NCBI GenBank assembly: GCA_934277975.1
Contig: CAKQWE010000003.1
Location: forward strand, 12,419-76,418
DNA: 64,000 nucleotides
DNA from: an uncultured Spirochaetales bacterium
Lineage (GTDB): Bacteria > Spirochaetota > Spirochaetia > Sphaerochaetales > Sphaerochaetaceae
Direction: 5' to 3'
Below, in pieces: positions 2,475 through 64,000 of this stretch. The notes under the pieces were generated by a model that did no database searches, was not told the origin of the DNA, and worked only from the letters and a program-made list of their open reading frames with translations. Every line of letters begins with the position of its first letter. Position 1 is the stretch's first letter. A program made the position numbers and the translations under genes.

Positions 2475-3410
2475 ATGTCTAAGATTGTCATTGCACTTGG
2501 TGGAAATGCGTTGGGAAGCACCCCGTATGAGCAGCTTGAGTTGGTAAGGGAGACCGCAAAGCCCATAGTGGACCTTATCGCTGCGGGAAATGAGGTCGTG
2601 ATCGCCCATGGAAACGGGCCTCAGGTTGGGATGATCAACCTTGGTATGGCCACCGCTGCGGAGGCGAAGGCCATCAAGAGCGATATGCCGTTTCCGGAGT
2701 GCGGTGCAATGAGCCAGGGCTACATAGGCTATCATCTTCAGAACGCAATTGGCAACGAGCTTGCCTCCCGTGGAATGGACAAGGAGGTTGCAACAGTCGT
2801 GACGCAGGTGCTTGTCGATGAGAACGACCAGGCCTTCTCCCATCCTACAAAGCCGGTTGGAGCCTTCTATGACAAGGAGACTGCTGACAGGATCGCCAAG
2901 GAGAAGGGCTACACGATGGTTGAGGATGCAGGTCGTGGCTACAGACAGGTCGTTCCATCTCCAAAGCCGATCGATGTAATAGAGAAGAGGGCCGTCGAAG
3001 GCCTCATTGCTCAGGGGTGTGTCGTAATCACAGTCGGTGGCGGTGGAATCCCTGTGGTGCGCAAGGACGGAAAACTCTACGGAACCCCTGCTGTCATAGA
3101 CAAGGACTTTGCATCAGAGAAGCTTGCAGAGCTCATAGATGCTGACCAGCTTGTAATCCTCACCGCCGTTGAGAAGGTTGCAATCAATTTCAGAAAGGAG
3201 AACGAAGAGTGGCTTTCTGAGCTCACTACGAGCAAGGCCAAGGAGCTTGCATCCCAGGGTCACTTCGCACCGGGCTCCATGCTTCCAAAGGTCCAGGCCT
3301 GCGTTCAGTTCGCAGAGAGCAAGAAGGGTAGGGTCGCAATCATCACATCCCTTGACAAGGCCCTTCAGGCACTCAATGGCGAGACTGGAACCAAGGTGGT
3401 TCTTGGTTGA
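2475..3410 (+). CDS. arcC: carbamate kinase
   Basis: N-terminus MSKIVIALGGNALG and the HGNGPQVG motif, 311 aa. An AGGAGAGGA Shine-Dalgarno-like run lies upstream. Confidence 0.85.
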   Translation: MSKIVIALGGNALGSTPYEQLELVRETAKPIVDLIAAGNEVVIAHGNGPQVGMINLGMATAAEAKAIKSDMPFPECGAMSQGYIGYHLQNAIGNELASRGMDKEVATVVTQVLVDENDQAFSHPTKPVGAFYDKETADRIAKEKGYTMVEDAGRGYRQVVPSPKPIDVIEKRAVEGLIAQGCVVITVGGGGIPVVRKDGKLYGTPAVIDKDFASEKLAELIDADQLVILTAVEKVAINFRKENEEWLSELTTSKAKELASQGHFAPGSMLPKVQACVQFAESKKGRVAIITSLDKALQALNGETGTKVVLG

Positions 3411-3452
3411 TATCAGGCTTTAGGCCGATATCCTTGAATTCTGGGTTTTGAA

Positions 3453-4076
3453 ATGCAGGAGCAGTTCCTATTGTTTGATGAATCTGAATTCGATGTCTGT
3501 GCAGACATCAATGCACTTGTAATAGGTGCTGACGAGGCGGGACGCGGGCCGTTGGCCGGTCCCGTCTGTGCTTCTGCGGTGGCGCTGCCGCAGGGTTTCC
3601 CCTTCGAGCTTTTGAACGACTCCAAGAAGATGACTGAGAGGAAGCGCCTTTTGGCCGAGCCTGTCATAAAGGAGAAGGCCCTTGCCTGGGCCGTGTGCTG
3701 GGCTACTCCCAAAGAGATTGATGAGATCAATATACTTCAAGCTTCGTTGCTCGCTATGAAAAGGGCCTTTGAAAGGGTTCGTTCACAGTTGGCGGGGTTG
3801 GGTTTGGATGCAGACATGCTTCTTGTCGATGGCAACAAGACCCCTGATGTTGATTTCCCATGCCAGGCGATAGTGAAGGGGGACTCCAAGGTCCCTGCCA
3901 TAATGGCGGCCTCCATCCTTGCAAAGAACGCAAGGGATAGGTTCATGGTATGTGCCGCTTCAAAATGGCCTGAGTATGGATTCGAGAAGCACAAAGGGTA
4001 TCCGTGCCCTTTGCATAAGCAAATGCTCTACAAGTATGGGCCGTGTCCCATACATAGAAAGACATTCAAGTATTAG
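3453..4076 (+). CDS. rnhB: ribonuclease HII
   Basis: GADEAGRGPLAGPV catalytic motif, DSK motif, 207 aa. Confidence 0.85.
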   Translation: MQEQFLLFDESEFDVCADINALVIGADEAGRGPLAGPVCASAVALPQGFPFELLNDSKKMTERKRLLAEPVIKEKALAWAVCWATPKEIDEINILQASLLAMKRAFERVRSQLAGLGLDADMLLVDGNKTPDVDFPCQAIVKGDSKVPAIMAASILAKNARDRFMVCAASKWPEYGFEKHKGYPCPLHKQMLYKYGPCPIHRKTFKY

Positions 4077-4113
4077 AATGCGCTGGTACGTTGCAAGAAG
4101 GAGGCTCTTTGCC

Positions 4114-4365
4114 TTACTGGGAATCCCTCTTGTTTGCGTGGACCTTCATGAAGTCGACTGACTTCTGGAACTCGCGGATGAACTCTCCAAGGTCCTCTGG
4201 GTAGACGATTACACTCTGGCGGATGAAACGGCCTTCGTCTGCGGTGACTTTGCTCTCGACTATGTTCAGGTACATGTCGCCTTTGTAGTTCTCCTTGACA
4301 TTGAAGAAATAGGTTCTGTCGTTCGTTACGAACTTGGTTGAGAAAACTTCACCGCGCTGACCCAT
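4114..4365 (-). CDS. PUR-alpha-like nucleic-acid-binding protein (DUF3276 family)
   Basis: 83 aa with RTYFFNVKENYKGDMYLNIVESK, the PUR-repeat signature seen in spirochaete and Bacteroidetes DUF3276 proteins. Confidence 0.65.
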   Translation of the reverse strand: MGQRGEVFSTKFVTNDRTYFFNVKENYKGDMYLNIVESKVTADEGRFIRQSVIVYPEDLGEFIREFQKSVDFMKVHANKRDSQ

Positions 4366-4421
4366 AGGAAAACCCCTCCGCTATGATAGTGTATTCGCAA
4401 TCCGCACACGAATGCACGAGC

Positions 4422-4452
4422 TTGGAAAACAAAAAACCACGCATGAGCGTGG
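4422..4452 (-). terminator. Rho-independent terminator downstream of tRNA-Gly
   Basis: On the - strand: CCACGC-TCAT-GCGTGG hairpin (4437-4452) followed by TTTTTTGTTTT. Confidence 0.7.
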
Positions 4453-4457
4453 TCTTA

Positions 4458-4528
4458 AGCGCCCGACGGGAGTCGAACCCGCTTCTTCAGCTTGGAAGGC
4501 TGAGGTAATACCATTATACCACAAGCGC
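4458..4528 (-). tRNA. tRNA-Gly (anticodon UCC)
   Basis: Manual cloverleaf: acceptor GCGCTTG/CGGGCGC, anticodon stem TCAGC/GCTGA with loop CTTCCAA, T-arm GCGGG-TTCGACT-CCCGT. It is 71 nt and CCA is not encoded. Confidence 0.85.
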
Positions 4529-4541
4529 ACGTACGAACGTA

Positions 4542-4571
4542 TTTATACCCAATAAGACGGGAAAACGTCAA
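4542..4571 (-). promoter_or_regulatory. candidate sigma70-type promoter for tRNA-Gly
   Basis: On the - strand: TTGACG, an 18 nt spacer, then TATAAA, ending about 14 nt before the tRNA 5' end. Confidence 0.4.
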
Positions 4572-4661
4572 GTAGGGCCTGACAAAAAACAAATCCTTAT
4601 GCTATATTTCTCCTGTTTGGGAAGTTGCTCTCTAGTCGAGTTAGTTCTTTGTGAGGTGAAC

Positions 4662-7463
4662 GTGTTTTTAAAATCTGTGGAGCTTTATGGTTTCAAGTCC
4701 TTTGCGGATAGGACCAAATTCGAATTCTCGGACGGCATAACGTCGTTGCTTGGACCGAACGGCAGCGGAAAGAGCAATGTCGTCGACTCCATAAAGTGGG
4801 TTCTTGGAACCCAGGCCTCAAGTGCGATAAGGGCTGCAAAGAGGGAGGACGTCATCTTCAACGGTACGGACTTCAGAAAGCCAATGCCCATGTGCGAGGT
4901 CATCCTCACATTGAACAACGAAGAACATCAGCTGAACATAGATGCAACCGAGGTTGAGATAAAGAGAAGGCTGTTTCGCAACGGCGACAACGAATACTAC
5001 ATAAACCGCAACAGAGTGCTCCTTAGGAACGTCAAGGAGCTTTTCATGGACACCGGTGTTGGAAAGGCCTCCTACAGCATTCTGGAACAGGGAAAGATAG
5101 ACCAGATCCTGTCCCTCAAGCCAGAGGACAGACGCTACATATTCGAAGAGGCATCTGGAATAAGCCGTTTCAAGCAGCAGAGCGACGAGGCGGCCAAGAA
5201 GCTTCAGAAGACTGATGAGAACATGGCCCAGGTGGAGCTCCTCCTAAGGGAGGCCGAGAAGGTCTACAACTCAAGGAAGGGGCAGCTGGACAAGGTTCTC
5301 AAGCATAGGGAGCTTTCTGCTAGGAAGGAGACGTTGGAGGTTGAGCTTCAGCTGTCGTACCTTCAGTCCCTTACCAAGCTCAAGGATTTCAGGCAGGAGC
5401 AGCAGACCAAGCTTGAGGACGAAGCGGCTGCAATAGACGCCGTCATGGACACCGCAAGGGAGGGCCTTGACAGGCAGCGGAACGAACTGGAGGAGCTCAG
5501 ACTCAAGCGCGACAGCATAAGCGCAAACATGCATAGGAACGAAGAGAAGGTCAATTCCATAAACACTGAGCTTGACTTCTACAACGAAAGGTTCAACGAA
5601 GTGTCCCAGCGTACCAAGGATGCCAAGGCAAAGGCTCAGCAGGTGCAGGACAGGATGGAGAAGGACCGCCAGAGGCTTGAGGAGAAGCAGGCGTCGTTGG
5701 ATTCCACCTTGGAGAACATTCGCCTTACGGACCAGAGCATAGAGAGGGCCACTGAGGAGATAGAGAAGCTCAAGGCCGACAGGATCAGGCATCAGCTTGA
5801 CATAGACGACCTGAACCATGAAATAGAGGCTTTGTCCCAGGAGAGGGTCGGAATCACCCAGCAGATAAGCGACCTTGCAAACGACATAGCCAACAGGCTT
5901 GAGGAGAACATCAAGGGAAGCGGCTACAGCTCCGCTCTTAGGGCGAAGGCTGAGAAGAAGCTCTTCGAGGAGCTAAGCAAGGCCAAGAAGATACTTGGCG
6001 AGAGGATGGAGTTCCTTAGAAACCTTGCTACGGTCGATTTTGACCCAAAGGTGTTCCAACAGGCGCTTGACGATGCGGACGAGTCCCTTCTTGAGGAGCT
6101 TGACGAGATAAAGGGACTTTTCCAGGAGTACAGCGGTACGATTCCAACGTTCCTGGATGAGTTCGTATCGCCTCAGGGGACGCTTGCAAAGAAAGTGGAG
6201 TTGGACAACAGGCTTGAAAGTTCGTATGCAAAGGAGACGGACTGCCGCAACAGGATCCAGGATTTCAATGCGGAGATCGAGAGGCTTTCCAGAATGCTCA
6301 TCTTGAAGGAATCGGACTTGAAGGACCTTGAGATGGATCGTGTCCAGTTCAAGGCGCAGGCCGATTCCACGAAGAGCTACATCATGGACCTCAAGCAGAG
6401 CCTCCAGCAGATGGAGTTCGATTTCTCCGATGCCTCCCATTCGTTCGAGGCCGAGCAGAGCAAGGTCAACGAGGTCCTTGAGAAGATAGACGATGCCAAG
6501 AACCGCAAGAAGGAGATGTTCGAGGACATACGGGCCCTCAGGGACGAGGTGGATGCCCTCAACGTTGCAATAGAGGAGAAGAACTCCCAGATGCTGGCGC
6601 AGAACTCCCAGTTCCAGGACAAGTTCAACCGCAGGCAGCAGCTCATTGGGGAGATTGCGACGGGGCGCGAGAACATAAGGAGCCTTGGGGAGCAGATCCA
6701 GAAGATCTATACGGACTTCTTCGACAGTACTGGAAAGAGCCTTAGGGAGTTCAACGACCACGAGATAACGGAGGCCGTTGAGGACCTCAAGAACGAGCTT
6801 GAGACCGTGAAGAAGAGGATCCAGGACCTTGGCTACATAAACTACATGGCTGAGGACGAATACAACGAGGCAAAGAAGAACTTCGACTTCTACAGCAAGA
6901 ACATGGACGACCTCACAAAGGCCAAGGACGACCTTGAGGAGGTCATAGCGGAGATAAAGCGCCGCAGCGAGGAGATGTTCCTTGATACCTACAAGCAGAT
7001 TGCGGAGAACTTCCAGGAGATGTATACGACGCTCTTTGGAGGTGGAAGGGCTGAGCTTAGGCTCACGGACGACGACAATGTGCTTGAGTCCGGTATAGAC
7101 ATATTCGCCCAGCCGCCGGGAAAGAAGCTGTTGAACATGCAGCTCCTCTCTGGAGGAGAGCGTTCCATGACGGCCGTTGCACTTCTGTTTGCAACATATA
7201 TGGTCAAGCCGTCGCCGTTCTGTATCCTTGACGAGATAGACGCCGCCTTGGATGCAAGGAACATTGGTGCGTTCCTAAGGGTGCTTGAGAAGTTCGACGA
7301 CAAGAGCCAGTTCATCATAATCACCCACAACAAGAACACCGTAATGGGTTCCAACAGCCTTCTTGGTGTGACTCAGCAGGAGCTTGGAGTCTCCAAGATG
7401 ATAGGCTACAGGCTTGAGGACATCAAGGACATAAACAAGACCTATGATGAGCTCAAGGGTTGA
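4662..7463 (+). CDS. smc: chromosome segregation protein SMC
   Basis: N-terminus (GTG)FLKSVELYGFKSFADRT, Walker A GPNGSGKSN, long coiled coils, signature LSGGERS and Walker B FCILDEIDAALD. I moved the start to the GTG at 4662, preceded by GAGGTG at 4653-4658, because the ORF-track Met at 4599 adds a non-conserved 21 aa. Confidence 0.9.
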   Translation: MFLKSVELYGFKSFADRTKFEFSDGITSLLGPNGSGKSNVVDSIKWVLGTQASSAIRAAKREDVIFNGTDFRKPMPMCEVILTLNNEEHQLNIDATEVEIKRRLFRNGDNEYYINRNRVLLRNVKELFMDTGVGKASYSILEQGKIDQILSLKPEDRRYIFEEASGISRFKQQSDEAAKKLQKTDENMAQVELLLREAEKVYNSRKGQLDKVLKHRELSARKETLEVELQLSYLQSLTKLKDFRQEQQTKLEDEAAAIDAVMDTAREGLDRQRNELEELRLKRDSISANMHRNEEKVNSINTELDFYNERFNEVSQRTKDAKAKAQQVQDRMEKDRQRLEEKQASLDSTLENIRLTDQSIERATEEIEKLKADRIRHQLDIDDLNHEIEALSQERVGITQQISDLANDIANRLEENIKGSGYSSALRAKAEKKLFEELSKAKKILGERMEFLRNLATVDFDPKVFQQALDDADESLLEELDEIKGLFQEYSGTIPTFLDEFVSPQGTLAKKVELDNRLESSYAKETDCRNRIQDFNAEIERLSRMLILKESDLKDLEMDRVQFKAQADSTKSYIMDLKQSLQQMEFDFSDASHSFEAEQSKVNEVLEKIDDAKNRKKEMFEDIRALRDEVDALNVAIEEKNSQMLAQNSQFQDKFNRRQQLIGEIATGRENIRSLGEQIQKIYTDFFDSTGKSLREFNDHEITEAVEDLKNELETVKKRIQDLGYINYMAEDEYNEAKKNFDFYSKNMDDLTKAKDDLEEVIAEIKRRSEEMFLDTYKQIAENFQEMYTTLFGGGRAELRLTDDDNVLESGIDIFAQPPGKKLLNMQLLSGGERSMTAVALLFATYMVKPSPFCILDEIDAALDARNIGAFLRVLEKFDDKSQFIIITHNKNTVMGSNSLLGVTQQELGVSKMIGYRLEDIKDINKTYDELKG

Positions 7464-8615: not shown

Positions 8616-9953
8616 ATGTTCGATTCAATCAGCGATAAGTTTTCATCGATAATACGTTCCATCTCGGGAAAGTCCAAGATAAGCGAGAAGAACATCCAGG
8701 ATGCAATGGAGGAGATCAAGGTAGCCCTCCTAGATGCGGATGTGAATCTTCGTGTTGTAAGACGCTTTGTCAACCGGACCATGGAGGAGGCTCTTGGAGA
8801 CAAGGTCCTCAAGTCCGTGGATCCTGGCCAGCAGTTCGTCAAGATCGTCTACGACAAGATGGTCCAGTTGCTTGGAGACCCTGACAACCAGGCACTCAGG
8901 CTCAAGGGTCCTGACACGGTGACCGTCATCCTCATGATGGGACTTCAGGGCTCCGGTAAGACCACGACCAGCGCAAAGCTTGCACTCAACCTAAAGAAGC
9001 AGGGTAGACGTGTCATGCTGGCTGCATGCGACTTGGTAAGGCCCGCCGCAATCACGCAGCTTCAGGTCCTGGGAGAACAGATCGATGTCCCTGTGTATGC
9101 AGAGCTTGACACCAAGAACGCCGTTCAGGTGGCCCAGAACGCCCTCAAGAAGGCAAAGCGCGAGCAGTATGACGTGCTCATCGTGGATACATCCGGCAGA
9201 ATGCACCTTGACGAAGGTATGATGCAGGAGATCCAGGACATAGACAAGGCCCTGAACCCTGATGAGACGCTCTTTGTCGCAGATGCCATGACGGGCCAGA
9301 ACGCCGTGACCATTGCTCAGGAGTTCGAAAGCAAGGTTGGAATCACCGGCGTTGTGCTTACGAAGTTCGACTCCGACACAAGAGGCGGTGCAGCCCTGTC
9401 CCTCAGGGAGGTCGTTGGAAAGCCAATCAAGTTCATAGGCGTTGGCGAGAAGATGGACAACCTTGAGCCGTTCTATCCAGACAGGATGGCGAGCCGCATT
9501 CTTGGCATGGGCGACATAGTGACCCTTGTCGAGAAGGCTCAGGAGACATACGACCTCAAGCAGGCTGAGAAACTGCAGGAGAAGATGGCCAAGAACACCT
9601 TCGACCTCCAGGACTATCTTGAGCAGCTTGAGAACATGACGAAGATGGGTGGAGTGGGCAAACTCATAGATATGCTGCCTGGTGCGAAGGGAAATATATC
9701 GGAAGACGACATAAATACGGACGAATTGCGAAAAGAAAAGGCGATTATCCAGTCTATGACCTTCCAAGAAAGACAAAATATCTATATAATTGGTCCGGCC
9801 CGCAAGAAAAGGATTGCAAAGGGCAGTGGGACGTCGGTAGGTGAGGTAGGTCATCTATTGAAGAAGTTCGAAAAGATGCGGCTGAACATGAAGAAGCTCG
9901 CTAAGAATAAAAAGTACCAGGCTGCTTTGATGAAGCAGATGGGGATGAACTGA
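8616..9953 (+). CDS. ffh: signal recognition particle protein Ffh
   Basis: [29 protein letters not shown], and a Met-rich M domain. Confidence 0.95.
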
Positions 9954-12156: not shown

Positions 12157-12495
12157 ATGGATAAAGGGAAGCAGTCTGAACAAGTGGTATCGGCCTATCT
12201 GGAAAACCTTGGATATTCTGTCTTGGAAAGGAATTACAGGTGTAGGTTCGGTGAGGTGGACATCATTGCATCCAAGGATGGCGTGCTGTGTTTCGTGGAG
12301 GTCAAATCCCTCACGTCAAGGTGGGATGAAAGCGAGATTTCAAGGATGGTGGGCCCTGCCAAGATGAGGCGCATAAGGTTGACTGCAATCGATTATTTGA
12401 ATACTGTTGACCACAAGGGGCGCTTTGATAACACGAGGTTCGACGTCGCTACTGTGACAAATGGATGCGTCTCCTACTACGAAGGAGTTTTCTGA
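12157..12495 (+). CDS. yraN: YraN family (UPF0102) predicted endonuclease
   Basis: 112 aa with GYSVLERNYRCRFGEVDIIASKDGVLCFVEVKS, the typical YraN core. Its last 49 codons lie inside the left 162 bp repeat. Confidence 0.85.
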   Translation: MDKGKQSEQVVSAYLENLGYSVLERNYRCRFGEVDIIASKDGVLCFVEVKSLTSRWDESEISRMVGPAKMRRIRLTAIDYLNTVDHKGRFDNTRFDVATVTNGCVSYYEGVF

Positions 12496-12508
12496 TGGAT
12501 AACAGAAA
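12347..12508 (+). repeat. left copy of the 162 bp direct repeat (attL-like)
   Basis: Identical at every base to 18737-18898 in my manual comparison. Flanking bases differ (12346 a vs 18736 g; 12509 t vs 18899 g). Confidence 0.95.
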
Positions 12509-12614
12509 TCTCACGAAGCTTTTTTGTAGACAGTAAGCTTAAAGCTGTATTGTTTTGTATTGCATTATATTGAAATCTCTTTGAAATGCAACTTAAGTGT
12601 AGTATGCTAGCACT

Positions 12615-13580
12615 ATGGAAGGCGACAAACTTTTCAAACATGTTTATGATTTGTCTCCGCTTCTTCTCGATACACTGCTCAGAGATCGTACAACTGGCCG
12701 TTATATCCTTTGGATGACGAATAACTACGAACAGTATGGCTCTGGGTATGGGGAGCTCTGTGAAATTACTCCAAAACTCATACTTAGAGATTCAATGTCC
12801 ATTATCAAGCCTCGTAACGAGAAATCAGTTGAGGAACAAAGCATTCGAATAAAGGGGAAAGCTGAGGTTTTTACCCCCTCGTGGGTCTGTAACTTCCAGA
12901 ACAATCTTGTAGATGAAGCGTTCTTCGGTCGGAAAAACGTCTTCAACGTTTCCGAAGGCACAATGTGGACAGCAACCGATCACGTCGATTTTTGCGAGTA
13001 TGACTGGCGGAAATACGTCACTGCCTGTCGATTGGAAATTTCATGTGGCGAAGCTCCTTATTTGGTATCTCGCTATGATACGACTACAGGACATCCCATT
13101 GATATTCATAAACGCATAGGGTTGCTTGACCGCAAGCTACGTGTGGTTGATGAGAACTGTTCTAATCAAAACTGGCACTGCTGGGTGAAGAAGGCTTTTC
13201 AGTCCATCTACGGGTATGAATGGTCAGGGGATAATTTGTTTCTCGCAAGACAGAATCTGATGTTTACATACATGGATTACTTCATTGCGCATTTCGGCAG
13301 ATTCCCGGAAGAGGCGAAATTGTCAGAAATAGCAGAGATTATTTCGTGGAATATCTGGCAGATGGATGGTATCAGGTTTGTCGTTCCATGTTCTTGTCAT
13401 GAAGAGATTGTTTGCGAATCTCTGTTCGATGATGATGTGATCAAACGGCCATGCGAAGGGTGTATGACTGAAAACGTCTGCCGTCACAACGGTGTATACA
13501 GTAACATAAGGGACTGGAAAAAGAACGAAGTTGTATCGGCAGTCAGTCTAATAGGGGGGCCGAATGCCAAACGACATTGA
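12615..13580 (+). CDS. methyltransferase-like protein lacking motif IV, with a C-terminal Cys cluster; function unknown
   Basis: 321 aa. AEVFTPSWVCNFQNNLVD (aa 83-100) resembles gamma-class N6A-MTase motif X. LEISCGEAPYL (aa 140-150) resembles motif I. IYGYEWSGDNLFLARQNL (aa 198-215) resembles the HsdM-like xYGxExxxxxxxLAxxNL element. I found no (D/N)PP(Y/F) anywhere. There is a CSCH...C...CEGC...C cluster at aa 259-289. The ORF overlaps the next gene by 17 nt. Confidence 0.6.
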   Translation: MEGDKLFKHVYDLSPLLLDTLLRDRTTGRYILWMTNNYEQYGSGYGELCEITPKLILRDSMSIIKPRNEKSVEEQSIRIKGKAEVFTPSWVCNFQNNLVDEAFFGRKNVFNVSEGTMWTATDHVDFCEYDWRKYVTACRLEISCGEAPYLVSRYDTTTGHPIDIHKRIGLLDRKLRVVDENCSNQNWHCWVKKAFQSIYGYEWSGDNLFLARQNLMFTYMDYFIAHFGRFPEEAKLSEIAEIISWNIWQMDGIRFVVPCSCHEEIVCESLFDDDVIKRPCEGCMTENVCRHNGVYSNIRDWKKNEVVSAVSLIGGPNAKRH

Positions 13581-16500
13581 ATTCAACTCGGCGTTCTCGA
13601 ATGTTCTCATATATGTATTCAGAATCAATGATGATGTCCACAAGGACTATCTCAAGATTGGAAAGACAACAATCAAGGCTGACAAGGCTACCGTTCCGAT
13701 GCTTGTACCCAACTGTTCGTTGCTTAACAAGGCAGCAAAAGCCAGGATTGACCAGTACACCAAGACTGCAAACATCACCTATGATTTGCTTCATACGGAG
13801 CTGGCCATAAGGCCGAAGAAGGATGATCCGACACGCAATGAGTATTTCACGGATTCAGATGTCCATAAGGTTCTGATTCATTCAAATATCAAACGCAAAG
13901 AGACCGATGGAGCCCGGGAATGGTTCAGGTGCAATCTTGAAACAGTGAAGAATGCCATCAGAGCAGCCAAACATCATGAAAACTCTCTGACACCAGGAGA
14001 AATCTCCATCAGTCGTGATCCTATAGTGTTCAGGCCAGAACAGCAGCAGGCCATTGCTGACACCAAAAAGTGTTTCAGAACCCACAACAAGATGCTGTGG
14101 AATGCAAAAATGCGTTTTGGTAAGACGTTGACATCCCTGCAGGTTGTCAAAGATTTGAAGTTCCGTAGGACAATCATTATCACTCATCGGCCTGTTGTGA
14201 AGAATTCCTGGGGTGAGGATTTTGAAAAGGTTTTCAACAACTCTTCAGACTGGCATTATATCAAGAAGGATGAGACTACGCCTGATGTTGAGCCTGAGGT
14301 CAACGGATACATCACAGGGGATAAGCCTTTCGTTTTGTTTGCCTCAATGCAGGATTTGCGCGGGTCCATGACTGTTGGAGGCAAGTTTGACAAGAATGAA
14401 CTGATATTCAAGACTGAGTGGGACTGCGTGATTGTTGACGAGGCCCATGAGGGTACGAAGACATCTCTGGGCGACAACGTACTGAAGACCATTATAAAGG
14501 CCGATTCATATGGTAAGACGAAGGTCTTATACCTCTCAGGAACCCCGTTCAATCTTGTCGAGGACTTTGATGAGGTAGAAGTCTTTACGTGGGACTATGT
14601 AATGGAGCAGTCAAGTAAGGCTAATTGGGATATCTGTCACAGGCTGGATTCCAACCCGTATGAAAATCTTCCAATGCTTTACATCTACACGTACGATCTA
14701 GCGCAAGAGATTCGTGGATTCATAGAGACTGAAGACAAATCCTTTAACTTCAAAGAGTTTTTCAGAGTTTGGACAGGAAAGGCCAAACAGGATGGTAAGG
14801 TTCTCAATGACGACAGCCTCATTGGTCGTTTCGTTCATGAAGATGAGGTGAAATCTTTTCTCAATCTGCTGGTAAACAAGGATGCCAATTCGAACTATCC
14901 GTATTCATGTGAAGTCTACCGCGATTATTTCAGACACTCGCTCTGGATTCTTCCTGGTGTGAAGGAAGCCAAAGCTCTCAGCGAGCTCCTTCGAGAACAT
15001 CCAATCTTCAGAGGTTTTGGAATCGCTAATGTTGCCGGTGATGGAGATGAAGAACAGGAAAGCAAAGATGCCTTAAAAGAGGTTAACGGAAAAATCACCA
15101 ATCACCCGGAGAAAACCTACACAATTACACTGTCATGTGGCCGCCTGACTACAGGTGTGACAGTCCCACCATGGACGGCGGTTCTCATGCTTTCAGGTTC
15201 ATATTCGGTCTCAGCATCCAACTACCTTCAAACGATATTTCGTGTCCAGTCTCCTGCCAATATTGATGGCCGAATTAAAGACAAGTGTTTCGTCTTCGAT
15301 TTTGCTCCCGATCGTACGCTGAAGATGGTCGCGGAGGCTGGAAAGCTCTCCACTCGACCTGGAAAGAATGATGAATCTTCAGAGAAACAAATGAGAGATC
15401 TCCTGAATTTCTGTCCAGTCATCTCCATTAAGGGATCTCTCATGAAGGCATATGATGTAGATTCGATGCTCCAGCAGATCAAGCACATCTATGCTGAACG
15501 TGTTGTAAGAAATGGATTCGACGATCCAAAACTCTACAACGACAAGTTGCTCCATCTGACAGACATCGAGAACGAAAAGTTCAAAGGCTTGAAGGAAATC
15601 GTTGGCGCATCGAAAGCCGTAGACATCAACAGGAACATTACGCTCTCCAATGTTGGACTGACGAAGGAAGAACGTGAGCTTATCGATAAGGCTGATAAAG
15701 GGAAGAAATCTGAACTGAGCGATGAAGATAAGGAACGACTTGAGAAATTGAAAAAGGCCAAGGAGGAACGCAGTAAGGCAATCAGTATCCTTCGTGCTAT
15801 TTCCATAAGAATTCCGCTCTTGATCTATGGGTCTGAAATTCCGTTCGATGAGGATATCTCTATTGAGAATTTCATCGACCTTGTGGACGATCAATCTTGG
15901 GAGGAATTCATGCCAAGCAAGGTAACAAAGGATCTGTTCCGCCAGTTTATTGAGTATTACGACAAGGACATTTTCATCGTTGCAGGGAAGTCCATCAGAG
16001 CTCTCGTGAAAGGTGCAGACGAACTAGATCCAACGACGCGCATCAAGCGCATCGCCGATGTGTTTAGGATGTTCAAGAACCCAGACAAAGAGACCGTTTT
16101 GACTCCGTGGCGAGTGGTTAACATGCATATGTCTAATACTCTTGGTGGTTGGGATTCCTTTGCCGAGGATAATCGGGAACTGCTTGAAAATCCAAGGTTC
16201 GTGGATAACGGCGATGTTACAAGGAAGTGTTTGTCTCCTGATTCCAAAGTTTTGGAAATCAATTCGAAATCTGGTTTGTATCCATTGTATATAACATATT
16301 CGATTTTTAGGGAGCGATGCAAGAATATTCCTGATAGCATCCTTACTCCAGATAAAATGGACGAACTGTGGAGTCTTACGGTTGCCGAGAATGTGTATGT
16401 TGTATGCAAGACCAAGATGGCAAGAGCGATAACTAAGCGCACATTGCTTGGATACGAAAAGGGTAGGATTAATGCTCATGCATTTGAGGATTTAATCAAC

Positions 16501-17613
16501 CAGTTCAAAAGCAAGGCAGATCAGGTGTGTGAGAGAATCAAGGGAAGCAGCTTCTGGGAAAAGAAAGGAGTGAATAAAGATATGAAGTTCGATGCAGTTG
16601 TAGGAAATCCTCCGTACGATGAAGAAGGTAACAACACAAGAAAAACTCCAATTTATCAATACTTTTATGATGCAAGTTTCAAGCTTGCTCCAATTGTATC
16701 TTTAATTACACCTGCAAGATTCCTTTTTGACGCAGGACAAACATCTTCTGAATGGAATCATAAAATGCTTGCTGACGAGCATTTTAAAGTTGTTCGGTTC
16801 TTTGTAAATTCACAAGAAGTTTTTCCATCAGTCAGCATAAAAGGTGGTGTTGCAATAACGTATTGGTGTGAATATGAGAAGTTTGGAGCAATCGGGACTT
16901 TTACTTCTTTCAGTGAATTGAACAACATTCTTCAGAAGTCGACTTCTGATATCGAAGGGAAATCTACCATGGAGTCGATTATTCAGGCGCAAGGACTTTA
17001 TAGGTTCTCTGATGTATTCATGAATAAGCATCCTGAGATATCTGAGAAAATGGGTAAAGGAACCGGAGCAAAAATTACTTCTAAAATTGTTGATCAAATG
17101 GATAACTTGTTCCCAGAAAGTTCTGACAACATCGATGGAGATGCTGTCAAGCTTCTAATACGAACGAAAACTGGAAAGAGAGCATATCGATACATAAAAA
17201 GGGAGTATTTGCAGAATAACAGATATCTTGATTCATATAACGTGATTGTTCCAGAGTCAAATGGAACAGGTGCTATCGGAGAGGTGTTATCGACTCCCCT
17301 GATCGGGGAGCCCCTGATCGGGCATACAGATACCTTCCTGAGTATTGGTGCTTTTTCGACAGAAGAAGAAGCTTCCAATTGTATGAAGTATATCAAAACA
17401 CGATATGCAAGAGTGATGCTGGGTATCCTTAAGGCAACACAGCATAATTCGCCTTCCACATGGAAATACGTTCCGATGCAGAATTTCACCGCTTCTTCCG
17501 ACATCGACTGGTCACAGTCGGTGTCGGAAATCGACCAACAACTCTACAAAAAGTACAATCTGTCACCGTATGAAATCGCATTCATTGAAGAGAATGTTCA
17601 GCCCATGGAGTGA
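13564..17613 (+). CDS. 1349 aa multidomain protein: T5orf172/GIY-YIG-like N-terminus + SF2 (SNF2/res-like) helicase + Eco57I/TaqI_C-like NPPY methyltransferase module
   Basis: aa 14-130: LKIGKT...DVHKVL...GAREWF (T5orf172-like). Helicase motifs: AKMRFGKT (aa 181-188), VIVDEAHEG (289-297), LYLSGTPF (322-329), RLTTGVTVP (527-535), QTIFRVQS (556-563). MTase-like motifs: TVLTPWRVVNMHM (844-856), VLEINSKSGLYPLY (896-909, degenerate motif I), FDAVVGNPPY (1009-1018; NPPY at nt 16606-16617). The C-terminal ...TDTFLSIGAFSTEEEASNCMKYIKTRYARVML...LYKKYNLSPYEIAFIEENV resembles TaqI_C-type target-recognition tails. Confidence 0.75.
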   Translation: MPNDIEFNSAFSNVLIYVFRINDDVHKDYLKIGKTTIKADKATVPMLVPNCSLLNKAAKARIDQYTKTANITYDLLHTELAIRPKKDDPTRNEYFTDSDVHKVLIHSNIKRKETDGAREWFRCNLETVKNAIRAAKHHENSLTPGEISISRDPIVFRPEQQQAIADTKKCFRTHNKMLWNAKMRFGKTLTSLQVVKDLKFRRTIIITHRPVVKNSWGEDFEKVFNNSSDWHYIKKDETTPDVEPEVNGYITGDKPFVLFASMQDLRGSMTVGGKFDKNELIFKTEWDCVIVDEAHEGTKTSLGDNVLKTIIKADSYGKTKVLYLSGTPFNLVEDFDEVEVFTWDYVMEQSSKANWDICHRLDSNPYENLPMLYIYTYDLAQEIRGFIETEDKSFNFKEFFRVWTGKAKQDGKVLNDDSLIGRFVHEDEVKSFLNLLVNKDANSNYPYSCEVYRDYFRHSLWILPGVKEAKALSELLREHPIFRGFGIANVAGDGDEEQESKDALKEVNGKITNHPEKTYTITLSCGRLTTGVTVPPWTAVLMLSGSYSVSASNYLQTIFRVQSPANIDGRIKDKCFVFDFAPDRTLKMVAEAGKLSTRPGKNDESSEKQMRDLLNFCPVISIKGSLMKAYDVDSMLQQIKHIYAERVVRNGFDDPKLYNDKLLHLTDIENEKFKGLKEIVGASKAVDINRNITLSNVGLTKEERELIDKADKGKKSELSDEDKERLEKLKKAKEERSKAISILRAISIRIPLLIYGSEIPFDEDISIENFIDLVDDQSWEEFMPSKVTKDLFRQFIEYYDKDIFIVAGKSIRALVKGADELDPTTRIKRIADVFRMFKNPDKETVLTPWRVVNMHMSNTLGGWDSFAEDNRELLENPRFVDNGDVTRKCLSPDSKVLEINSKSGLYPLYITYSIFRERCKNIPDSILTPDKMDELWSLTVAENVYVVCKTKMARAITKRTLLGYEKGRINAHAFEDLINQFKSKADQVCERIKGSSFWEKKGVNKDMKFDAVVGNPPYDEEGNNTRKTPIYQYFYDASFKLAPIVSLITPARFLFDAGQTSSEWNHKMLADEHFKVVRFFVNSQEVFPSVSIKGGVAITYWCEYEKFGAIGTFTSFSELNNILQKSTSDIEGKSTMESIIQAQGLYRFSDVFMNKHPEISEKMGKGTGAKITSKIVDQMDNLFPESSDNIDGDAVKLLIRTKTGKRAYRYIKREYLQNNRYLDSYNVIVPESNGTGAIGEVLSTPLIGEPLIGHTDTFLSIGAFSTEEEASNCMKYIKTRYARVMLGILKATQHNSPSTWKYVPMQNFTASSDIDWSQSVSEIDQQLYKKYNLSPYEIAFIEENVQPME

Positions 17614-17616
17614 CTT

Positions 17617-17796
17617 ATGCCAAAAAAGACGAAAGACAGCGTAGCTATCTCCATGAGATTGGAGAAGACTGTTTATGAGAGGCTGAGAGCTTATGCAGAA
17701 GATAAGGGACAAACGTATACGACCGCCCTTGAACGTATTATCACAGCTTACCTAGATGAGCGAGAACAGAAACTAAAGGAAAAAGAGGAAAGGTAA
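17617..17796 (+). CDS. 59 aa ribbon-helix-helix (CopG/Arc/MetJ-like) protein
   Basis: Not in the ORF track because it is under 60 aa. Translation: MPKKTKDSVAISMRLEKTVYERLRAYAEDKGQTYTTALERIITAYLDEREQKLKEKEER. This gives a beta strand (ISMRLEK) followed by two helices. GGAG lies 6 nt upstream of the ATG. Its TAA overlaps the next ATG (TAATG at 17794-17798). Confidence 0.6.
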   Translation: MPKKTKDSVAISMRLEKTVYERLRAYAEDKGQTYTTALERIITAYLDEREQKLKEKEER

Positions 17797-18689
17797 TGGG
17801 AATATTCTACAACATATCCGTTGAAGGGGATGACTCAAACGGTATCAAGGTTATCGAGAACCCAACGAAGACTTTAAAGGCTCTTTTGTTTCCTAGAGAG
17901 TGTATACACGAGTTCAACCTTCGACCAGAGGCAGAACAGGCAGGTGTATACATTCTCTACAACTCGATGGATAGGAATGAACAGCCCCACATCTATATTG
18001 GACAGACTGGATACGGAATCACATCTAGATTGTCGAACCACAACAGGACGAAGGATTTTTGGAACCAGGCACTTGTTTTCGTTGAGAAGGGTGATTTCCT
18101 TAACCTAAATGGCTCTCATGCAAAGATAATCGAATCTAGGCTCATCTCTAAAGCAGGGGAATGCGGTGCTGTTGTTATGGAAAACAACACTGGATCGAGA
18201 GCTCCAAGAGTACAACCTTCAGATCAAATGGCTGCCGATACTTGGGCAGAAGAAGTTGTGACTATCACTAGACTTCTTGGCCTTGCATTCTTCCATGGAA
18301 CTAAATCTCAGATTCCAGATGCTAGTACAGCAGCTATCTCCGTTCAGGCTGTCAAAAGTGATGTTCCAAATGGAACATACACACTTACCAAAAATAAGAA
18401 GGTCGATGGGAAAACGATAAAGGCGACTGCTGTAGTTAAAGATGGAGAGTGGGTTATTAAGAAAGGCTCTGTTTTGAGTGTTTGTGAACATCCTAAAGTT
18501 TCAGAAGGGAATAAGGAACTGAGGAAAAAGCTGGAGCTTGATTTTCAAGGCAACCTTCTTGAGGATTTCAATCTTGGTAGTGTGTCGCCAAGCACCGCAG
18601 GATGCGTTGTTTTAAACCAACCGTCATGCAATGGTTGGACTAGCTGGTTTACAGAGGATAATAAACCCATAGACATATTTAGAAATTAA
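17796..18689 (+). CDS. GIY-YIG nuclease-family protein with a DUF4357-like C-terminal domain
   Basis: GVYILYN...HIYIGQTGYGITSRLSNH...FWNQALVF...AKIIESRLI matches the GIY-YIG core. The C-terminal SPSTAGCVVLNQPSCNGWTSWFTEDNKPIDIFR matches my recollection of DUF4357. Confidence 0.7.
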   Translation: MGIFYNISVEGDDSNGIKVIENPTKTLKALLFPRECIHEFNLRPEAEQAGVYILYNSMDRNEQPHIYIGQTGYGITSRLSNHNRTKDFWNQALVFVEKGDFLNLNGSHAKIIESRLISKAGECGAVVMENNTGSRAPRVQPSDQMAADTWAEEVVTITRLLGLAFFHGTKSQIPDASTAAISVQAVKSDVPNGTYTLTKNKKVDGKTIKATAVVKDGEWVIKKGSVLSVCEHPKVSEGNKELRKKLELDFQGNLLEDFNLGSVSPSTAGCVVLNQPSCNGWTSWFTEDNKPIDIFRN

Positions 18690-18736
18690 AAATTGGATGC
18701 AAAAGAGTTCAACTGTTCTGTCCTTATATGCAGCAG

Positions 18737-18885
18737 TGGTGGGCCCTGCCAAGATGAGGCGCATAAGGTTGACTGCAATCGATTATTTGAATACTGTTGA
18801 CCACAAGGGGCGCTTTGATAACACGAGGTTCGACGTCGCTACTGTGACAAATGGATGCGTCTCCTACTACGAAGGAGTTTTCTGA
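18737..18885 (+). pseudogene. duplicated 3' fragment of yraN (last 49 codons)
   Basis: It encodes VGPAKMRRIRLTAIDYLNTVDHKGRFDNTRFDVATVTNGCVSYYEGVF, identical to the end of yraN. ORF 18697-18885 fuses it to unrelated island sequence. The YraN catalytic core is missing. Confidence 0.85.
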
Positions 18886-18898
18886 TGGATAACAGAAA
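18737..18898 (+). repeat. right copy of the 162 bp direct repeat (attR-like)
   Basis: Identical to 12347-12508. Confidence 0.95.
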
Positions 18899-19283
18899 GA
18901 AAAGAAAGCCAAAGTCTAAGAGATCGGTCCCTGCTGCTCCTCAGCAGAAACCCAGGTCCAGAATGATATTCGATGACGTGGAGGTCCCTCAGGTGGTAGA
19001 GCCAAGGCCTGACTGCAGTATATGCGGCCAGCCCATAGAGTCCATCATAGAGGCCATAAGCGAGCCAGACGGAGGCCTCAGTCATTTCGACTGCGTGCTT
19101 GAGAAGCTCAGGGAGCGCGAGCATGTACAGGAGCCGGATTCCATTTCATACATAGGACATGGGAATTTCGCCGTAGTCACCAAGGACGAAGAGGGCAGGT
19201 ACTCCATAAAATACAGAATCCAGTATGAGAGCAACGATGACTATGCCAACGTGAAGAGGCAGGTGGAGGAGTCCAAGAAATGA
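18885..19283 (+). CDS. hypothetical protein (basic N-terminus, CxxC...HxxC element)
   Basis: I prefer the ATG at 18885, because TGATG overlaps the yraN-type stop, over the track start at 18855. Translation begins MDNRKKRKPKSKR, with ...CSICGQPIES...SHFDCVLEKL further in. It is followed immediately by coaD. Confidence 0.6.
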   Translation: MDNRKKRKPKSKRSVPAAPQQKPRSRMIFDDVEVPQVVEPRPDCSICGQPIESIIEAISEPDGGLSHFDCVLEKLREREHVQEPDSISYIGHGNFAVVTKDEEGRYSIKYRIQYESNDDYANVKRQVEESKK

Positions 19284-61997: not shown

Positions 61998-62027
61998 GGC
62001 ATCTGTCGCAAGACGAATGCCACCTTA

Positions 62028-62101
62028 GCTCAGTTGGCCAGAGCACGTGACTTGTAATCTCGGGGTCGTCAGTTCGAATCCGACAGGTGGCTAAGCACAG
62101 G
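62028..62101 (+). tRNA. tRNA-Thr (anticodon UGU)
   Basis: Acceptor GCCACCT/AGGTGGC, D-arm GCTC-AGTTGGCCA-GAGC, anticodon loop CTTGTAA, T-loop TTCGAAT. There is one U-U mismatch in the anticodon stem and one A-C mismatch in the T stem. CCA is not encoded. Confidence 0.8.
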
Positions 62102-62723: not shown

Positions 62724-63019
62724 TTACCTAAGTCCTGACATAATTCTGGTTTCCACGAATAGAGCAGTTTTCGATGAAGTGTTTGGAGATTTCGCCTTCG
62801 AAGGTGAAAGATATCAGAACCCTGATAATCCAACCATTCTTTATGTCCGGAAGTATAGACGAGGGTCTCAGGTTCTGTTTTGGATTTTCAACAACCGAGG
62901 TATGGCGTTTGGACCTAGGTTTGATTTCATAGCAAATAGCATCAAGGATTTGGAATAGCTCGTTTTTCCGTCTGTTTGATTGGAAAAGCGAAATTAGATA
63001 GTGATAAGGAGAAGAAAGA

Positions 63020-63622
63020 ATGTCAGAGACTTTACATGACAGATTGTTTGAGGACTTGGTCTTTTTGTATTCAACGGAGTGCAGGTTCAGCGATGAGATG
63101 AAAGACCAGATAAAGAAAGACATGGCTTGGATGTGGACGGATCATGCGAACTTTCAAGAAAAGAGAAAAGCCAAGTATCTAGGATGTGGCTTCTGGTCCA
63201 AGGAAGCTTTGGATGTATTGTATGAAATGGACTGGAAAACACTTAAACCTAACAGAAGGAAAACAAGAGTCAACTATCAAAGTATTCTTCGTCATGACCA
63301 TGTTTACCCAAGAAAAGACTTCAAAGAATCCTGCGATGCATTTTTCAAACACGACCATTCGGAGAATGATTTGCACGAATTCAAGGAAAAGCTTGAAGAG
63401 TTCTTCTGTGGATGTGTCATCACGAAGGAAGAAGATCGCCGTTTGCCACGAGGTGCCAGTGAACACATAGATGTTTGTTCTCTTTCTCCAAATGAGTATT
63501 GGTCAAGATATAGAAACTACAACGAAGCCCATAAAGACAAGCCAGTCGAAGTCTATAAATGCGAATGGGAGCTCAACGGCAGGAGTTGGAATCTGGTATG
63601 CGTAAGCAAGGTGGAGATGTAA
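63020..63622 (+). CDS. hypothetical protein (orphan)
   Basis: 200 aa ORF with AAGGAGAAGAAAGA upstream of the ATG. It contains ILRHDHVYPRKDF and CGCVITKEEDRRL segments. No family confidently recognised. Confidence 0.45.
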   Translation: MSETLHDRLFEDLVFLYSTECRFSDEMKDQIKKDMAWMWTDHANFQEKRKAKYLGCGFWSKEALDVLYEMDWKTLKPNRRKTRVNYQSILRHDHVYPRKDFKESCDAFFKHDHSENDLHEFKEKLEEFFCGCVITKEEDRRLPRGASEHIDVCSLSPNEYWSRYRNYNEAHKDKPVEVYKCEWELNGRSWNLVCVSKVEM

Positions 63623-63745
63623 TATTTCTATATCGAACATTTTTGCGGGTATACGCAGTTTTGTTCGATGGAACGGCGGGGTAGGGCAACCTCTCCGCCC
63701 GTTCTGTAATCTCTCTGCAACCTTTTGATTTTGTCTATTTTGTAA

Positions 63746-64000
63746 CTACATTTCCAAACTTGCAGGATTCAGCAAGAAGTCGAAGATGCTCATGACCAGT
63801 ACACCTCTGTCATTGTAGTACGGTGCTGGCGCATCCTTGGTGACTATGATTTTCTTGAAGGCATCTCCTGTCATCATCAGGGATCGTTGCTCCTGCTCTA
63901 TTTTCGCCTGGTCCGGAACGGAATAGGCTGACTGGATGTAGTAACGCCTGGAGCCTTTGTTGCATACGAAATCTATTTCATACTGCCTGCGGGTGCTTCT
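63746..64000 (-). CDS. 3' end of an AAA-ATPase/DUF4143-type (COG1373-like) gene; 5' part outside the window
   Basis: The - strand frame is open from 64000 to the TAG at 63746-63748: ...YEIDFVCNKGSRRYYIQSAYSVPDQAKIEQEQRSLMMTGDAFKKIIVTKDAPAPYYNDRGVLVMSIFDFLLNPASLEM. This matches my recollection of the C-terminus of that family. It is absent from the ORF track because it has no start in the window. Confidence 0.5.
   Translation of the reverse strand, partial: RSTRRQYEIDFVCNKGSRRYYIQSAYSVPDQAKIEQEQRSLMMTGDAFKKIIVTKDAPAPYYNDRGVLVMSIFDFLLNPASLEM

Follow-up and report, generated by a model that had tools for sequence, protein, structure and literature searches.

Type ISP restriction–modification (R-M) enzymes act as single polypeptides (PMC3874165). 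The chain of LlaGI and LlaBIII begins with an N-terminal Mrr-type PD-(D/E)xK nuclease, followed by a superfamily 2 (SF2) motor, a gamma-class N6-adenine methylase and a C-terminal recognition domain. Such enzymes translocate at the expense of ATP, cut DNA when two of them coming from head-to-head sites collide, and methylate a single strand. In 2009, Morgan et al. had already drawn attention to uncharacterised ‘large single polypeptides’ that combine nuclease, helicase, methylase and recognition domains, and to a split version, YeeA/B/C, which includes a GIY-YIG protein and was predicted to be a type-I-like R-M system with single-strand modification (PMC2731913). The DnmA(YeeA)-YeeB-YeeC cluster of Bacillus subtilis is found in defence islands (PMC9973331). 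The subject here is a group of four genes, designated A to D, located at positions 12615–18689 of a 64,000-nucleotide (nt) stretch of DNA from an uncultured Spirochaetales bacterium (assembly GCA_934277975.1, contig CAKQWE010000003.1, positions 12,419 to 76,418); this whole stretch is called the window below. The four genes are a composite R-M island, consisting of a two-gene R-M unit (A and B), a regulator (C) and a passenger nuclease (D), and not one system.

All four open reading frames (ORFs) lie on the forward (+) strand: A (12615–13580) encodes 321 amino acids (aa), B (13564–17613) 1349 aa, C (17617–17796) 59 aa and D (17796–18689) 297 aa. A and B overlap by 17 nt, a gap of 3 nt separates B from C, and C and D overlap by 1 nt (TAATG), as read from the sequence. 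An earlier note on this DNA had reported one strand and junctions of −17, +3 and −1, which the ORF coordinates and the sequence bear out; its domain calls for A–D hold as well, the weak Pfam matches being backed by invariant catalytic residues in alignments. Pfam and PADLOC scans were run on A, B, C and D; NCBIfam, also run, gave only spurious or weak matches for the module. The description of the genes as restriction- or defence-type cargo is supported by domain, PADLOC and neighbour evidence. The note had set the module apart from BREX (bacteriophage exclusion) and DISARM (defence island system associated with restriction–modification), from classical type I systems and from canonical Mrr-headed Type ISP enzymes. 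The results agree: PglZ, BrxC, DrmA and DrmB were unmatched in the PADLOC scan of A–D, the distinction from classical type I is supported, and the N-terminus of B is T5orf172, with no match to Mrr. The opinion that the module could not be assigned has not stood, for PADLOC gives MTase_II for A, REase_MTase_IIG for B (both models derive from REBASE) and the candidate PDC-S14 for D.

Protein B is a fusion of a predicted nuclease, a predicted motor and a predicted methylase. Residues 1–140 (13564–13983) comprise a T5orf172 or GIY-YIG-like nuclease domain; the match to Pfam T5orf172 is weak (E-value 1.1e-3), but residues Y17, K31, G33, R61 and E119 are invariant in the alignment of 20 homologues that underlies all statements on invariance in B, and the NCBI product name of a plasmid-borne homologue is ‘GIY-YIG nuclease family protein’. 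The SF2 helicase-like ATPase occupies residues 141–650 (13984–15513; Pfam ResIII 1.9e-14, SNF2 and DEAD matching less well). Its GKT (186–188) and DEAH (292–295) motifs are invariant, and the region is the best conserved part of B, with a mean pairwise identity of 0.57. A K/E-rich linker, which the translation and the alignment show to be poorly conserved, follows at residues 651–740 (15514–15783). Residues 741–1005 (15784–16578), delimited from an AlphaFold model and from invariant columns, contain a helical connector and the methylase N-half of B itself, with motif X (TVLTPWRVVN), a motif I-like segment (LEINSKSGLY) and a motif II lacking the acidic residue. The catalytic half of the methylase, residues 1006–1100 (16579–16863), begins MKFDAVVGNPPY and matches Pfam Eco57I (2.5e-27); its NPPY motif, residues 1015–1018 (nt 16606–16617), is invariant. 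According to the identity profile, the remainder of the protein, residues 1101–1349 (16864–17610), is a hypervariable target-recognition domain ending in a conserved C-terminal tail.

The AlphaFold model of residues 741–1349 has a predicted local distance difference test (pLDDT) score of 87 and a predicted template modelling (pTM) score of 0.84. It shows the helical connector, a complete seven-strand methylase, in which strands b1–b3 of the N-half pack on b4–b7, and the recognition domain; as modelled, B thus has a complete gamma-class NPPY adenine methylase fold. A Foldseek search with this model found CamA (1e-13), BrxX/PglX (4e-10), LlaBIII (6e-10) and LlaGI (1e-9), and also DrdV and MmeI. 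The PADLOC match of B to REase_MTase_IIG (3e-48) chiefly covers residues 1000–1346. Mean pairwise identity falls to 0.26 over residues 1101–1300, compared with 0.54–0.57 elsewhere. In the homologue P0008, the catalytic half and the recognition domain have been exchanged as a cassette at residue ~1005, the MKFD boundary: P0008 and the L182 homologue are 82–90% identical to B upstream of ~1005 and 19–39% identical downstream, the P0008 cassette being 19% identical. Judging by these alignments, the variability of the recognition domain and the cassette exchange are the signature of a sequence-specific R-M enzyme diversifying its target.

B has the Type ISP domain order because nuclease, ATPase, methylase and recognition domain line up in one chain. 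The methylase and recognition module also matches LlaBIII and LlaGI structurally, and lactococcal plasmids carry both kinds of enzyme. They differ at the N-terminus, which is of Mrr type in Type ISP and T5orf172/GIY-YIG-like in B, and in the A-type half-methylase partner, which accompanies B-type genes and has no counterpart in Type ISP. A paper on the lactococcal defensome lists four active ‘I SP’ systems. The Eco57I-family catalytic half and the recognition domain are common to B, to Type IIG/IIL enzymes (Eco57I, MmeI, DrdV) and to PglX/BrxX of BREX. Type IIG/IIL enzymes, however, have PD-ExK nucleases and no ATPase motor, and Type IIG enzymes cut at a fixed distance without ATP, whereas in B both GKT and DEAH are intact within an SF2 ATPase of 500 aa; the island lacks PglZ and BrxC, the partners found in BREX. 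Eco57I likewise has a companion methylase, but that companion is complete and A is only half of one. In the DnmA-YeeB-YeeC cluster, compared here by activities only, an MmeI-like methylase, an SF2 helicase and a GIY-YIG/T5orf172 protein co-occur, as they do, fused, in B. There each part is a protein of its own, the order being methylase-helicase-nuclease, and a half-methylase partner has not been described. Split permutations of the methylase, helicase and nuclease parts exist within the A+B family too.

The role of the half-methylase A is the interesting point of the module. A carries motifs X (AEVFTPSW), I (LEISCGEAPY), II (YGYEW) and III (WNIWQMDG) and a C-terminal Cys/His zinc ribbon, the residues C261, C280, C283, H291 and C296 of which are conserved in alignments; the same alignments show neither motif IV (NPPY) nor a target-recognition domain. 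The earlier description of A as a methylase-like protein that lacks motif IV and carries a Cys cluster is confirmed. A has no Pfam family, and PADLOC matches it over its full length to MTase_II (4.5e-104). Members of the A family are about 50% identical across phyla and share invariant blocks. The AlphaFold model of A (pLDDT 85.5) consists of a motif-X helix, a hairpin, b1, two helices, b2, a helix, b3 and the zinc ribbon, and the order of these elements matches that in B’s own N-half when the models are compared. Searched by sequence against PDB chains, A gave no significant match; a profile of A-type partners found only type I HsdM in the PDB, at a non-significant E-value of ~0.9, with motifs X and I correctly aligned.

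The link from A to methylases runs through plasmid-borne relatives. B homologues on Lactococcus, Enterococcus and Lactobacillus plasmids (43% identity) are paired with ‘N-6 DNA methylase’ proteins of 230–236 aa, which carry textbook motifs X (EVFTP), I (FLEPAAGDGNF) and II (YGIE), have no NPPY and match Pfam N6_Mtase at positions 20–105 of 311 only. The plasmid partner proteins homologous to A, 217–282 aa in length, match these positions too; partners of this kind are related to A with a blastp E-value of 1e-10 and match the A profile at 1e-13. A, the 230–236-aa partners and the partners from E. faecium, Arthrobacter and Mycolicibacterium are mutually homologous, and align over motifs X, I, II and III (NIxxGDTL for motif III, WNIWQMDG in A), the alignment ending before motif IV. 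Because these homologous partners bear motifs X, I, II and III and stop before IV, A is identified from its sequence as the N-terminal, presumably cofactor-binding half of a gamma-methylase.

A profile search with A returned 2356 representatives, and about a fifth of the best 150 are proteins of 600–720 aa in which A is joined straight to an MKFD..GNPPY segment equivalent to B 1005–1349, the fusions inspected measuring 650–717 aa; behind one such fusion gene comes a T5orf172-helicase gene. In other genomes, the catalytic half is a separate gene. A, catalytic half and helicase are three genes at the locus L093; the order is A-like, helicase, catalytic half in Arthrobacter and A-like, catalytic half, GIY-YIG-helicase in Mycolicibacterium. 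Since gene fusions join the two, they argue that A works together with the catalytic half. The stand-alone T5orf172-helicase proteins (L180, Arthrobacter pJ349-116, 3285–6581, and L093, 3458–6832) end in a second N-half-like segment with motif X (VFTPxxVV) and a motif I-like sequence (FADxxxxxGLF). Because the split helicase proteins keep this segment of their own, all arrangements examined have two methylase N-halves to one catalytic half. The known split methyltransferases M.AquI and M.EcoHK31I are 5-methylcytosine enzymes, each made of one N-part and one C-part that must assemble. A+B resembles them in that the fold is divided over two polypeptides, and differs in having, in the permutations examined, two N-halves and one catalytic half. 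The split version at L093 (8776–14930) adjoins the Tn7-like genes tnsA, tniQ and tniB.

Searches with A and with B yielded at least 8000 clusters each. Relatives of A are encoded in at least 589 of 600 scanned stretches of GTDB species genomes, representing at least 589 species of several phyla. From such genomes, 80 A loci were retained for the survey of gene order; they come mainly from gut and rumen members of Bacillota, Bacteroidota, Spirochaetota, Opitutales, Oxalobacter and Gastranaerophilales. A B-type gene of ~1300–1390 aa with helicase and catalytic-half regions directly follows A in 53 of the 80 loci, covering nearly every complete one, and the others are for the most part cut short or frameshifted; not one of the 80 carries C or D. 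The A-type partner gene accompanies B-type genes on plasmids as well as in these genomes. A+B is a conserved two-gene core, very widespread but little studied, for which databases offer domain names only (‘Eco57I domain protein’, ‘restriction endonuclease subunit M’). B homologues occur on dairy Lactococcus and Enterococcus plasmids and are common on conjugative and mobilizable plasmids; B and D are both rare among phage records.

The gene after B is hypervariable, falling into 41 clusters in 51 loci. Defence proteins are frequent in this slot: Mrr, GmrSD, a Schlafen/AlbA_2 ATPase, an HD protein, an OLD/AriA-like ATPase, DUF2971/PDC-S31, or a PDC-M30A protein of TcmP-like type alongside a radical-SAM enzyme. 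The complete order A-B-C-D was found only in L094, L182 and the P0006 contig (which also carries P0124 and P0243). These are the closest relatives found, their B proteins being ~70–85% identical. Equally close, L004 and L095 keep A-B-C, other genes replacing D. At positions 9184–11413 of L182, the D homologue is interrupted by an IS256-family (Transposase_mut) element and A-B-C is intact. The 84%-identical A-B-C relative in L004 (1–5200) adjoins a type I-F CRISPR–Cas (clustered regularly interspaced short palindromic repeats and associated genes) locus with an array of ~26 repeats.

The small protein C weakly matches the ribbon–helix–helix (RHH) family RHH_10 of Pfam (2e-4) and a RelB-like NCBIfam family (1.8e-3), both under the curated cut-offs. 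Its homologues follow B in L004, L094, L095, L093 and L182, C standing behind B in every close relative whatever gene comes next, and follow D in L087 and L089; they adjoin D homologues in L087, L089, L094, L097 and L182. The RHH gene accompanies B or D only in close relatives. Protein D has Pfam matches to GIY-YIG (1.5e-3, residues ~45–135) and to DUF4357 and RAMA (7e-5 and 5e-4, residues ~220–297), and its catalytic residues Y52, Y67, R78, E113 and N130 are conserved in the alignment. All five PDC-S14 models of PADLOC match D, the best at 2.5e-51 over residues 11–292; D shares with PDC-S14 a GIY-YIG N-terminus and a DUF4357 C-terminus, PDC-S14 being itself only a candidate that the literature names in genome surveys alone. 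The C-terminus of D resembles the C-terminal domain of CcrM, and this DUF4357/RAMA tail distinguishes D from the GIY-YIG type IV enzyme CMoRE. No match was found for D among solved structures, CMoRE included, by sequence or by profile.

D homologues of ~55% identity stand behind type I hsdR-M-S operons at a distance of 10 nt, with a C homologue of 61 aa next in line, and a 37%-identical one sits after recA. Across the 80 loci surveyed for the wider D family, the neighbours are mixed: N6_Mtase, HsdR, HsdM, MmeI-type methylase and ResIII proteins occur, and so do unrelated genes. An RHH gene is near D in one of these 80 loci, and it was rejected as an obligate partner of the whole family. The gene order also flips, from C-D in the window to D-C behind the type I operons. 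The split version in L093 has an RHH gene and a D-like gene whose product is 82% identical to D over the N-terminal 170 aa. C and D are best read, from sequence and context, as a regulator and a passenger nuclease riding on R-M operons; by analogy, D may be a type IV-like nuclease, as CMoRE is, or a guard.

The explanation preferred here, which is considered probable, is that two defence units are stacked in the island: A and B would be an ATP-dependent R-M system of the Type ISP kind, D a separate passenger nuclease and C a regulator. The C-terminal recognition domain of B would read a short DNA site, and its gamma-class NPPY methylase would mark an adenine of the host, using S-adenosylmethionine (SAM). 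On DNA without the mark, the SF2 motor would translocate and the N-terminal GIY-YIG-like (T5orf172) domain would cut. A would be an obligatory small subunit, most likely SAM-binding, docked on the methylase and recognition module of B, and its docking might either complete methylation or gate methylation versus restriction. D would act on its own as a GIY-YIG nuclease that binds DNA through its DUF4357/RAMA tail, placed in a variable passenger slot 3′ of R-M operons, and C as a small DNA-binding regulator tied, in the local clade, to the B/D junction.

Several results weigh against this explanation. A well-characterised R-M type with a known prototype, to which the earlier note allowed that the operon might belong, did not emerge: no A+B member was found that is biochemically characterised or has had its methylation or restriction measured. 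Neither the B sequence by itself nor a profile of 20 homologues is detectably similar to any PDB chain, LlaBIII (4xqk) and LlaGI (5ffj) included, so the mechanistic analogy to Type ISP rests on domain order and fold. The DnmA-YeeB-YeeC cluster methylates GACGAG, but it neither protected against the three phages used nor hindered transformation (PMC9973331). The B model already shows a complete methylase fold, so that a need for A to complete it is not evident. A Foldseek search with the A model found nothing significant, the best matches being gamma-methylases with E ~1.4, and the idea that A is a paralogue of B’s internal N-half was dropped when hhalign of A against B found nothing. Co-variation of A with the swapped cassette was rejected too: A is still 82% identical at loci whose cassette has dropped to 19–39%. 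The sequence of A tracks the constant part of B, which argues against a cassette-specific contact of A. Finally, C and D may be functionally linked to A+B because several close relatives carry them beside it, as L093 does beside the split version.

If the four genes formed one obligate system, and the earlier note had treated them as one, A and B might sense and mark DNA and D, under the control of C, would be the true effector. The tight junctions would fit, as would the repeated A-B-C-D order in L094, L182 and the P0006 contig and the RHH and D-like genes beside the split version in L093. This is nevertheless very unlikely, because A+B occurs without C or D throughout the 80 genome loci, the post-B gene is interchangeable and D homologues serve type I operons, as well as standing in unrelated contexts. 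Moreover, L004 and L095 keep A-B-C with D replaced, the transposase that splits D in L182 leaves A-B-C intact, and B retains its own invariant nuclease residues. Another proposal leaves the two-gene core in place and denies it restriction: A+B would be a methylation-only or relic module like DnmA-YeeB-YeeC, or a mobile anti-restriction methylase-helicase. It draws on DnmA-YeeB-YeeC, whose separate proteins have the same three activities and which methylates without a phage or transformation barrier, and on the frequency of B homologues on conjugative and mobilizable plasmids. It is judged unlikely: the catalytic residues of nuclease and ATPase are invariant across a very large family, recognition cassettes are swapped as in active R-M systems, the neighbours are often type IV restriction enzymes or other defence genes, and the deletion of the Vibrio homologues is reported, in work that PMC9973331 cites, to raise sensitivity to some phages.

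The passengers, too, can be explained otherwise. C and D could be a toxin–antitoxin-like addiction pair, with an RHH antitoxin and a GIY-YIG nuclease toxin, which stabilises the island; the weak RelB-family antitoxin match of C (1.8e-3), the overlap of the C stop with the D start (TAATG) and the adjacency of C and D homologues at the five loci named above point this way. Yet a conserved pair in fixed order, as in type II toxin–antitoxin systems, is not what C and D present: an RHH gene lies nearby in one of the 80 wider D loci, the order flips between C-D and D-C, C persists behind B without D in L004 and L095, and both family matches of C are under curated cut-offs. An addiction role is accordingly given a low probability. 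For A itself, a bolder and rather doubtful scheme is that the two N-halves alternate on, or compete for, the single catalytic half. Pairing with A would lead to methylation; with the motor-borne N-half as partner, site recognition would instead be tied to translocation and cutting. This would be a modification/restriction switch, possibly tuned by the SAM level, to which D and the RHH protein might add a back-up nuclease on R-M operons.

If the stacked-unit reading with a restricting A+B is true, A+B would stand as a second major lineage of ATP-driven restriction enzymes built as one chain, which differs from Type ISP by its GIY-YIG-type cutter and an unexplained half-methylase subunit that is always present. 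An understanding of that subunit would show how such enzymes choose between marking and cutting, and would improve the assignment of methylomes to genes in gut bacteria. For annotation, the lesson is that genes tightly packed 3′ of R-M operons are often interchangeable passengers and not subunits.

The module lies in an inserted island at 12509–18736 on the + strand, with 6,228 bp of unique sequence, or 6,390 bp with one repeat copy. It is bracketed by direct repeats of 162 nt, found by a repeat search at 12347–12508 (left) and 18737–18898 (right), with 100% identity, no strand assigned and a spacing of 6390 nt. In the left copy, the 3′ end of the yraN/UPF0102 gene runs into TGATG and the 14 nt that open the downstream gene; as read from the sequence, the repeat holds the last ~149 nt of yraN and the opening 14 nt of the next gene. 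The guanine–cytosine (GC) content across 12–19 kb is ~0.44, against ~0.50 in the flanks. The description of the locus as a discrete, recently inserted island is borne out by this GC fall and by the perfect flanking repeat. Both flanks are core chromosome, with smc, an M42 peptidase gene, ffh, rpsP, khpA, rimM, trmD, rplS and yraN upstream and coaD, rpmF, acpP and rnc downstream. The same island, repeats included, is identical in two samples (L001 and L002). The 6.4-kb island holds no genes beyond A–D, and none of its genes is an integrase. The presence of repeats without an internal integrase suggests that the island entered by integration of a circle, through a single crossover or a recombinase acting in trans.

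The right repeat affects gene calling. A 62-aa ORF at 18697–18885 (+), which overlaps this repeat, gets annotated by gene callers; it is not a real gene and is a chimera of island sequence and yraN tail, because the right repeat duplicates the 3′ end of yraN. The host gene just 3′ of the island, 18885–19283, encodes 132 aa from a start codon within the direct repeat, while a start further upstream in the repeat gives the called length of 142 aa; its product has a CxxC motif and no family match. A megablast of the region against Escherichia coli genomes and phage records gave no match, and a promoter and terminator scan showed no excess over the shuffled expectation. An Rfam scan of the window found only two tRNAs, tRNA-Gly at 4458–4528 and tRNA-Thr at 62019–62092. 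In L095, a related island with A-B-RHH plus genes for a TcmP-like protein and a radical-SAM enzyme lies between the two copies of a 175-nt direct repeat, 73% identical, at 6702–6876 and 14939–15113. Its target is the 3′ end of a tRNA-U5-methyltransferase-like gene, so that the style of insertion is the same and the target is another. The two low-GC stretches (0.42–0.45) at the edges of the window, 1–2000 and 63000–64000, may be further islands.

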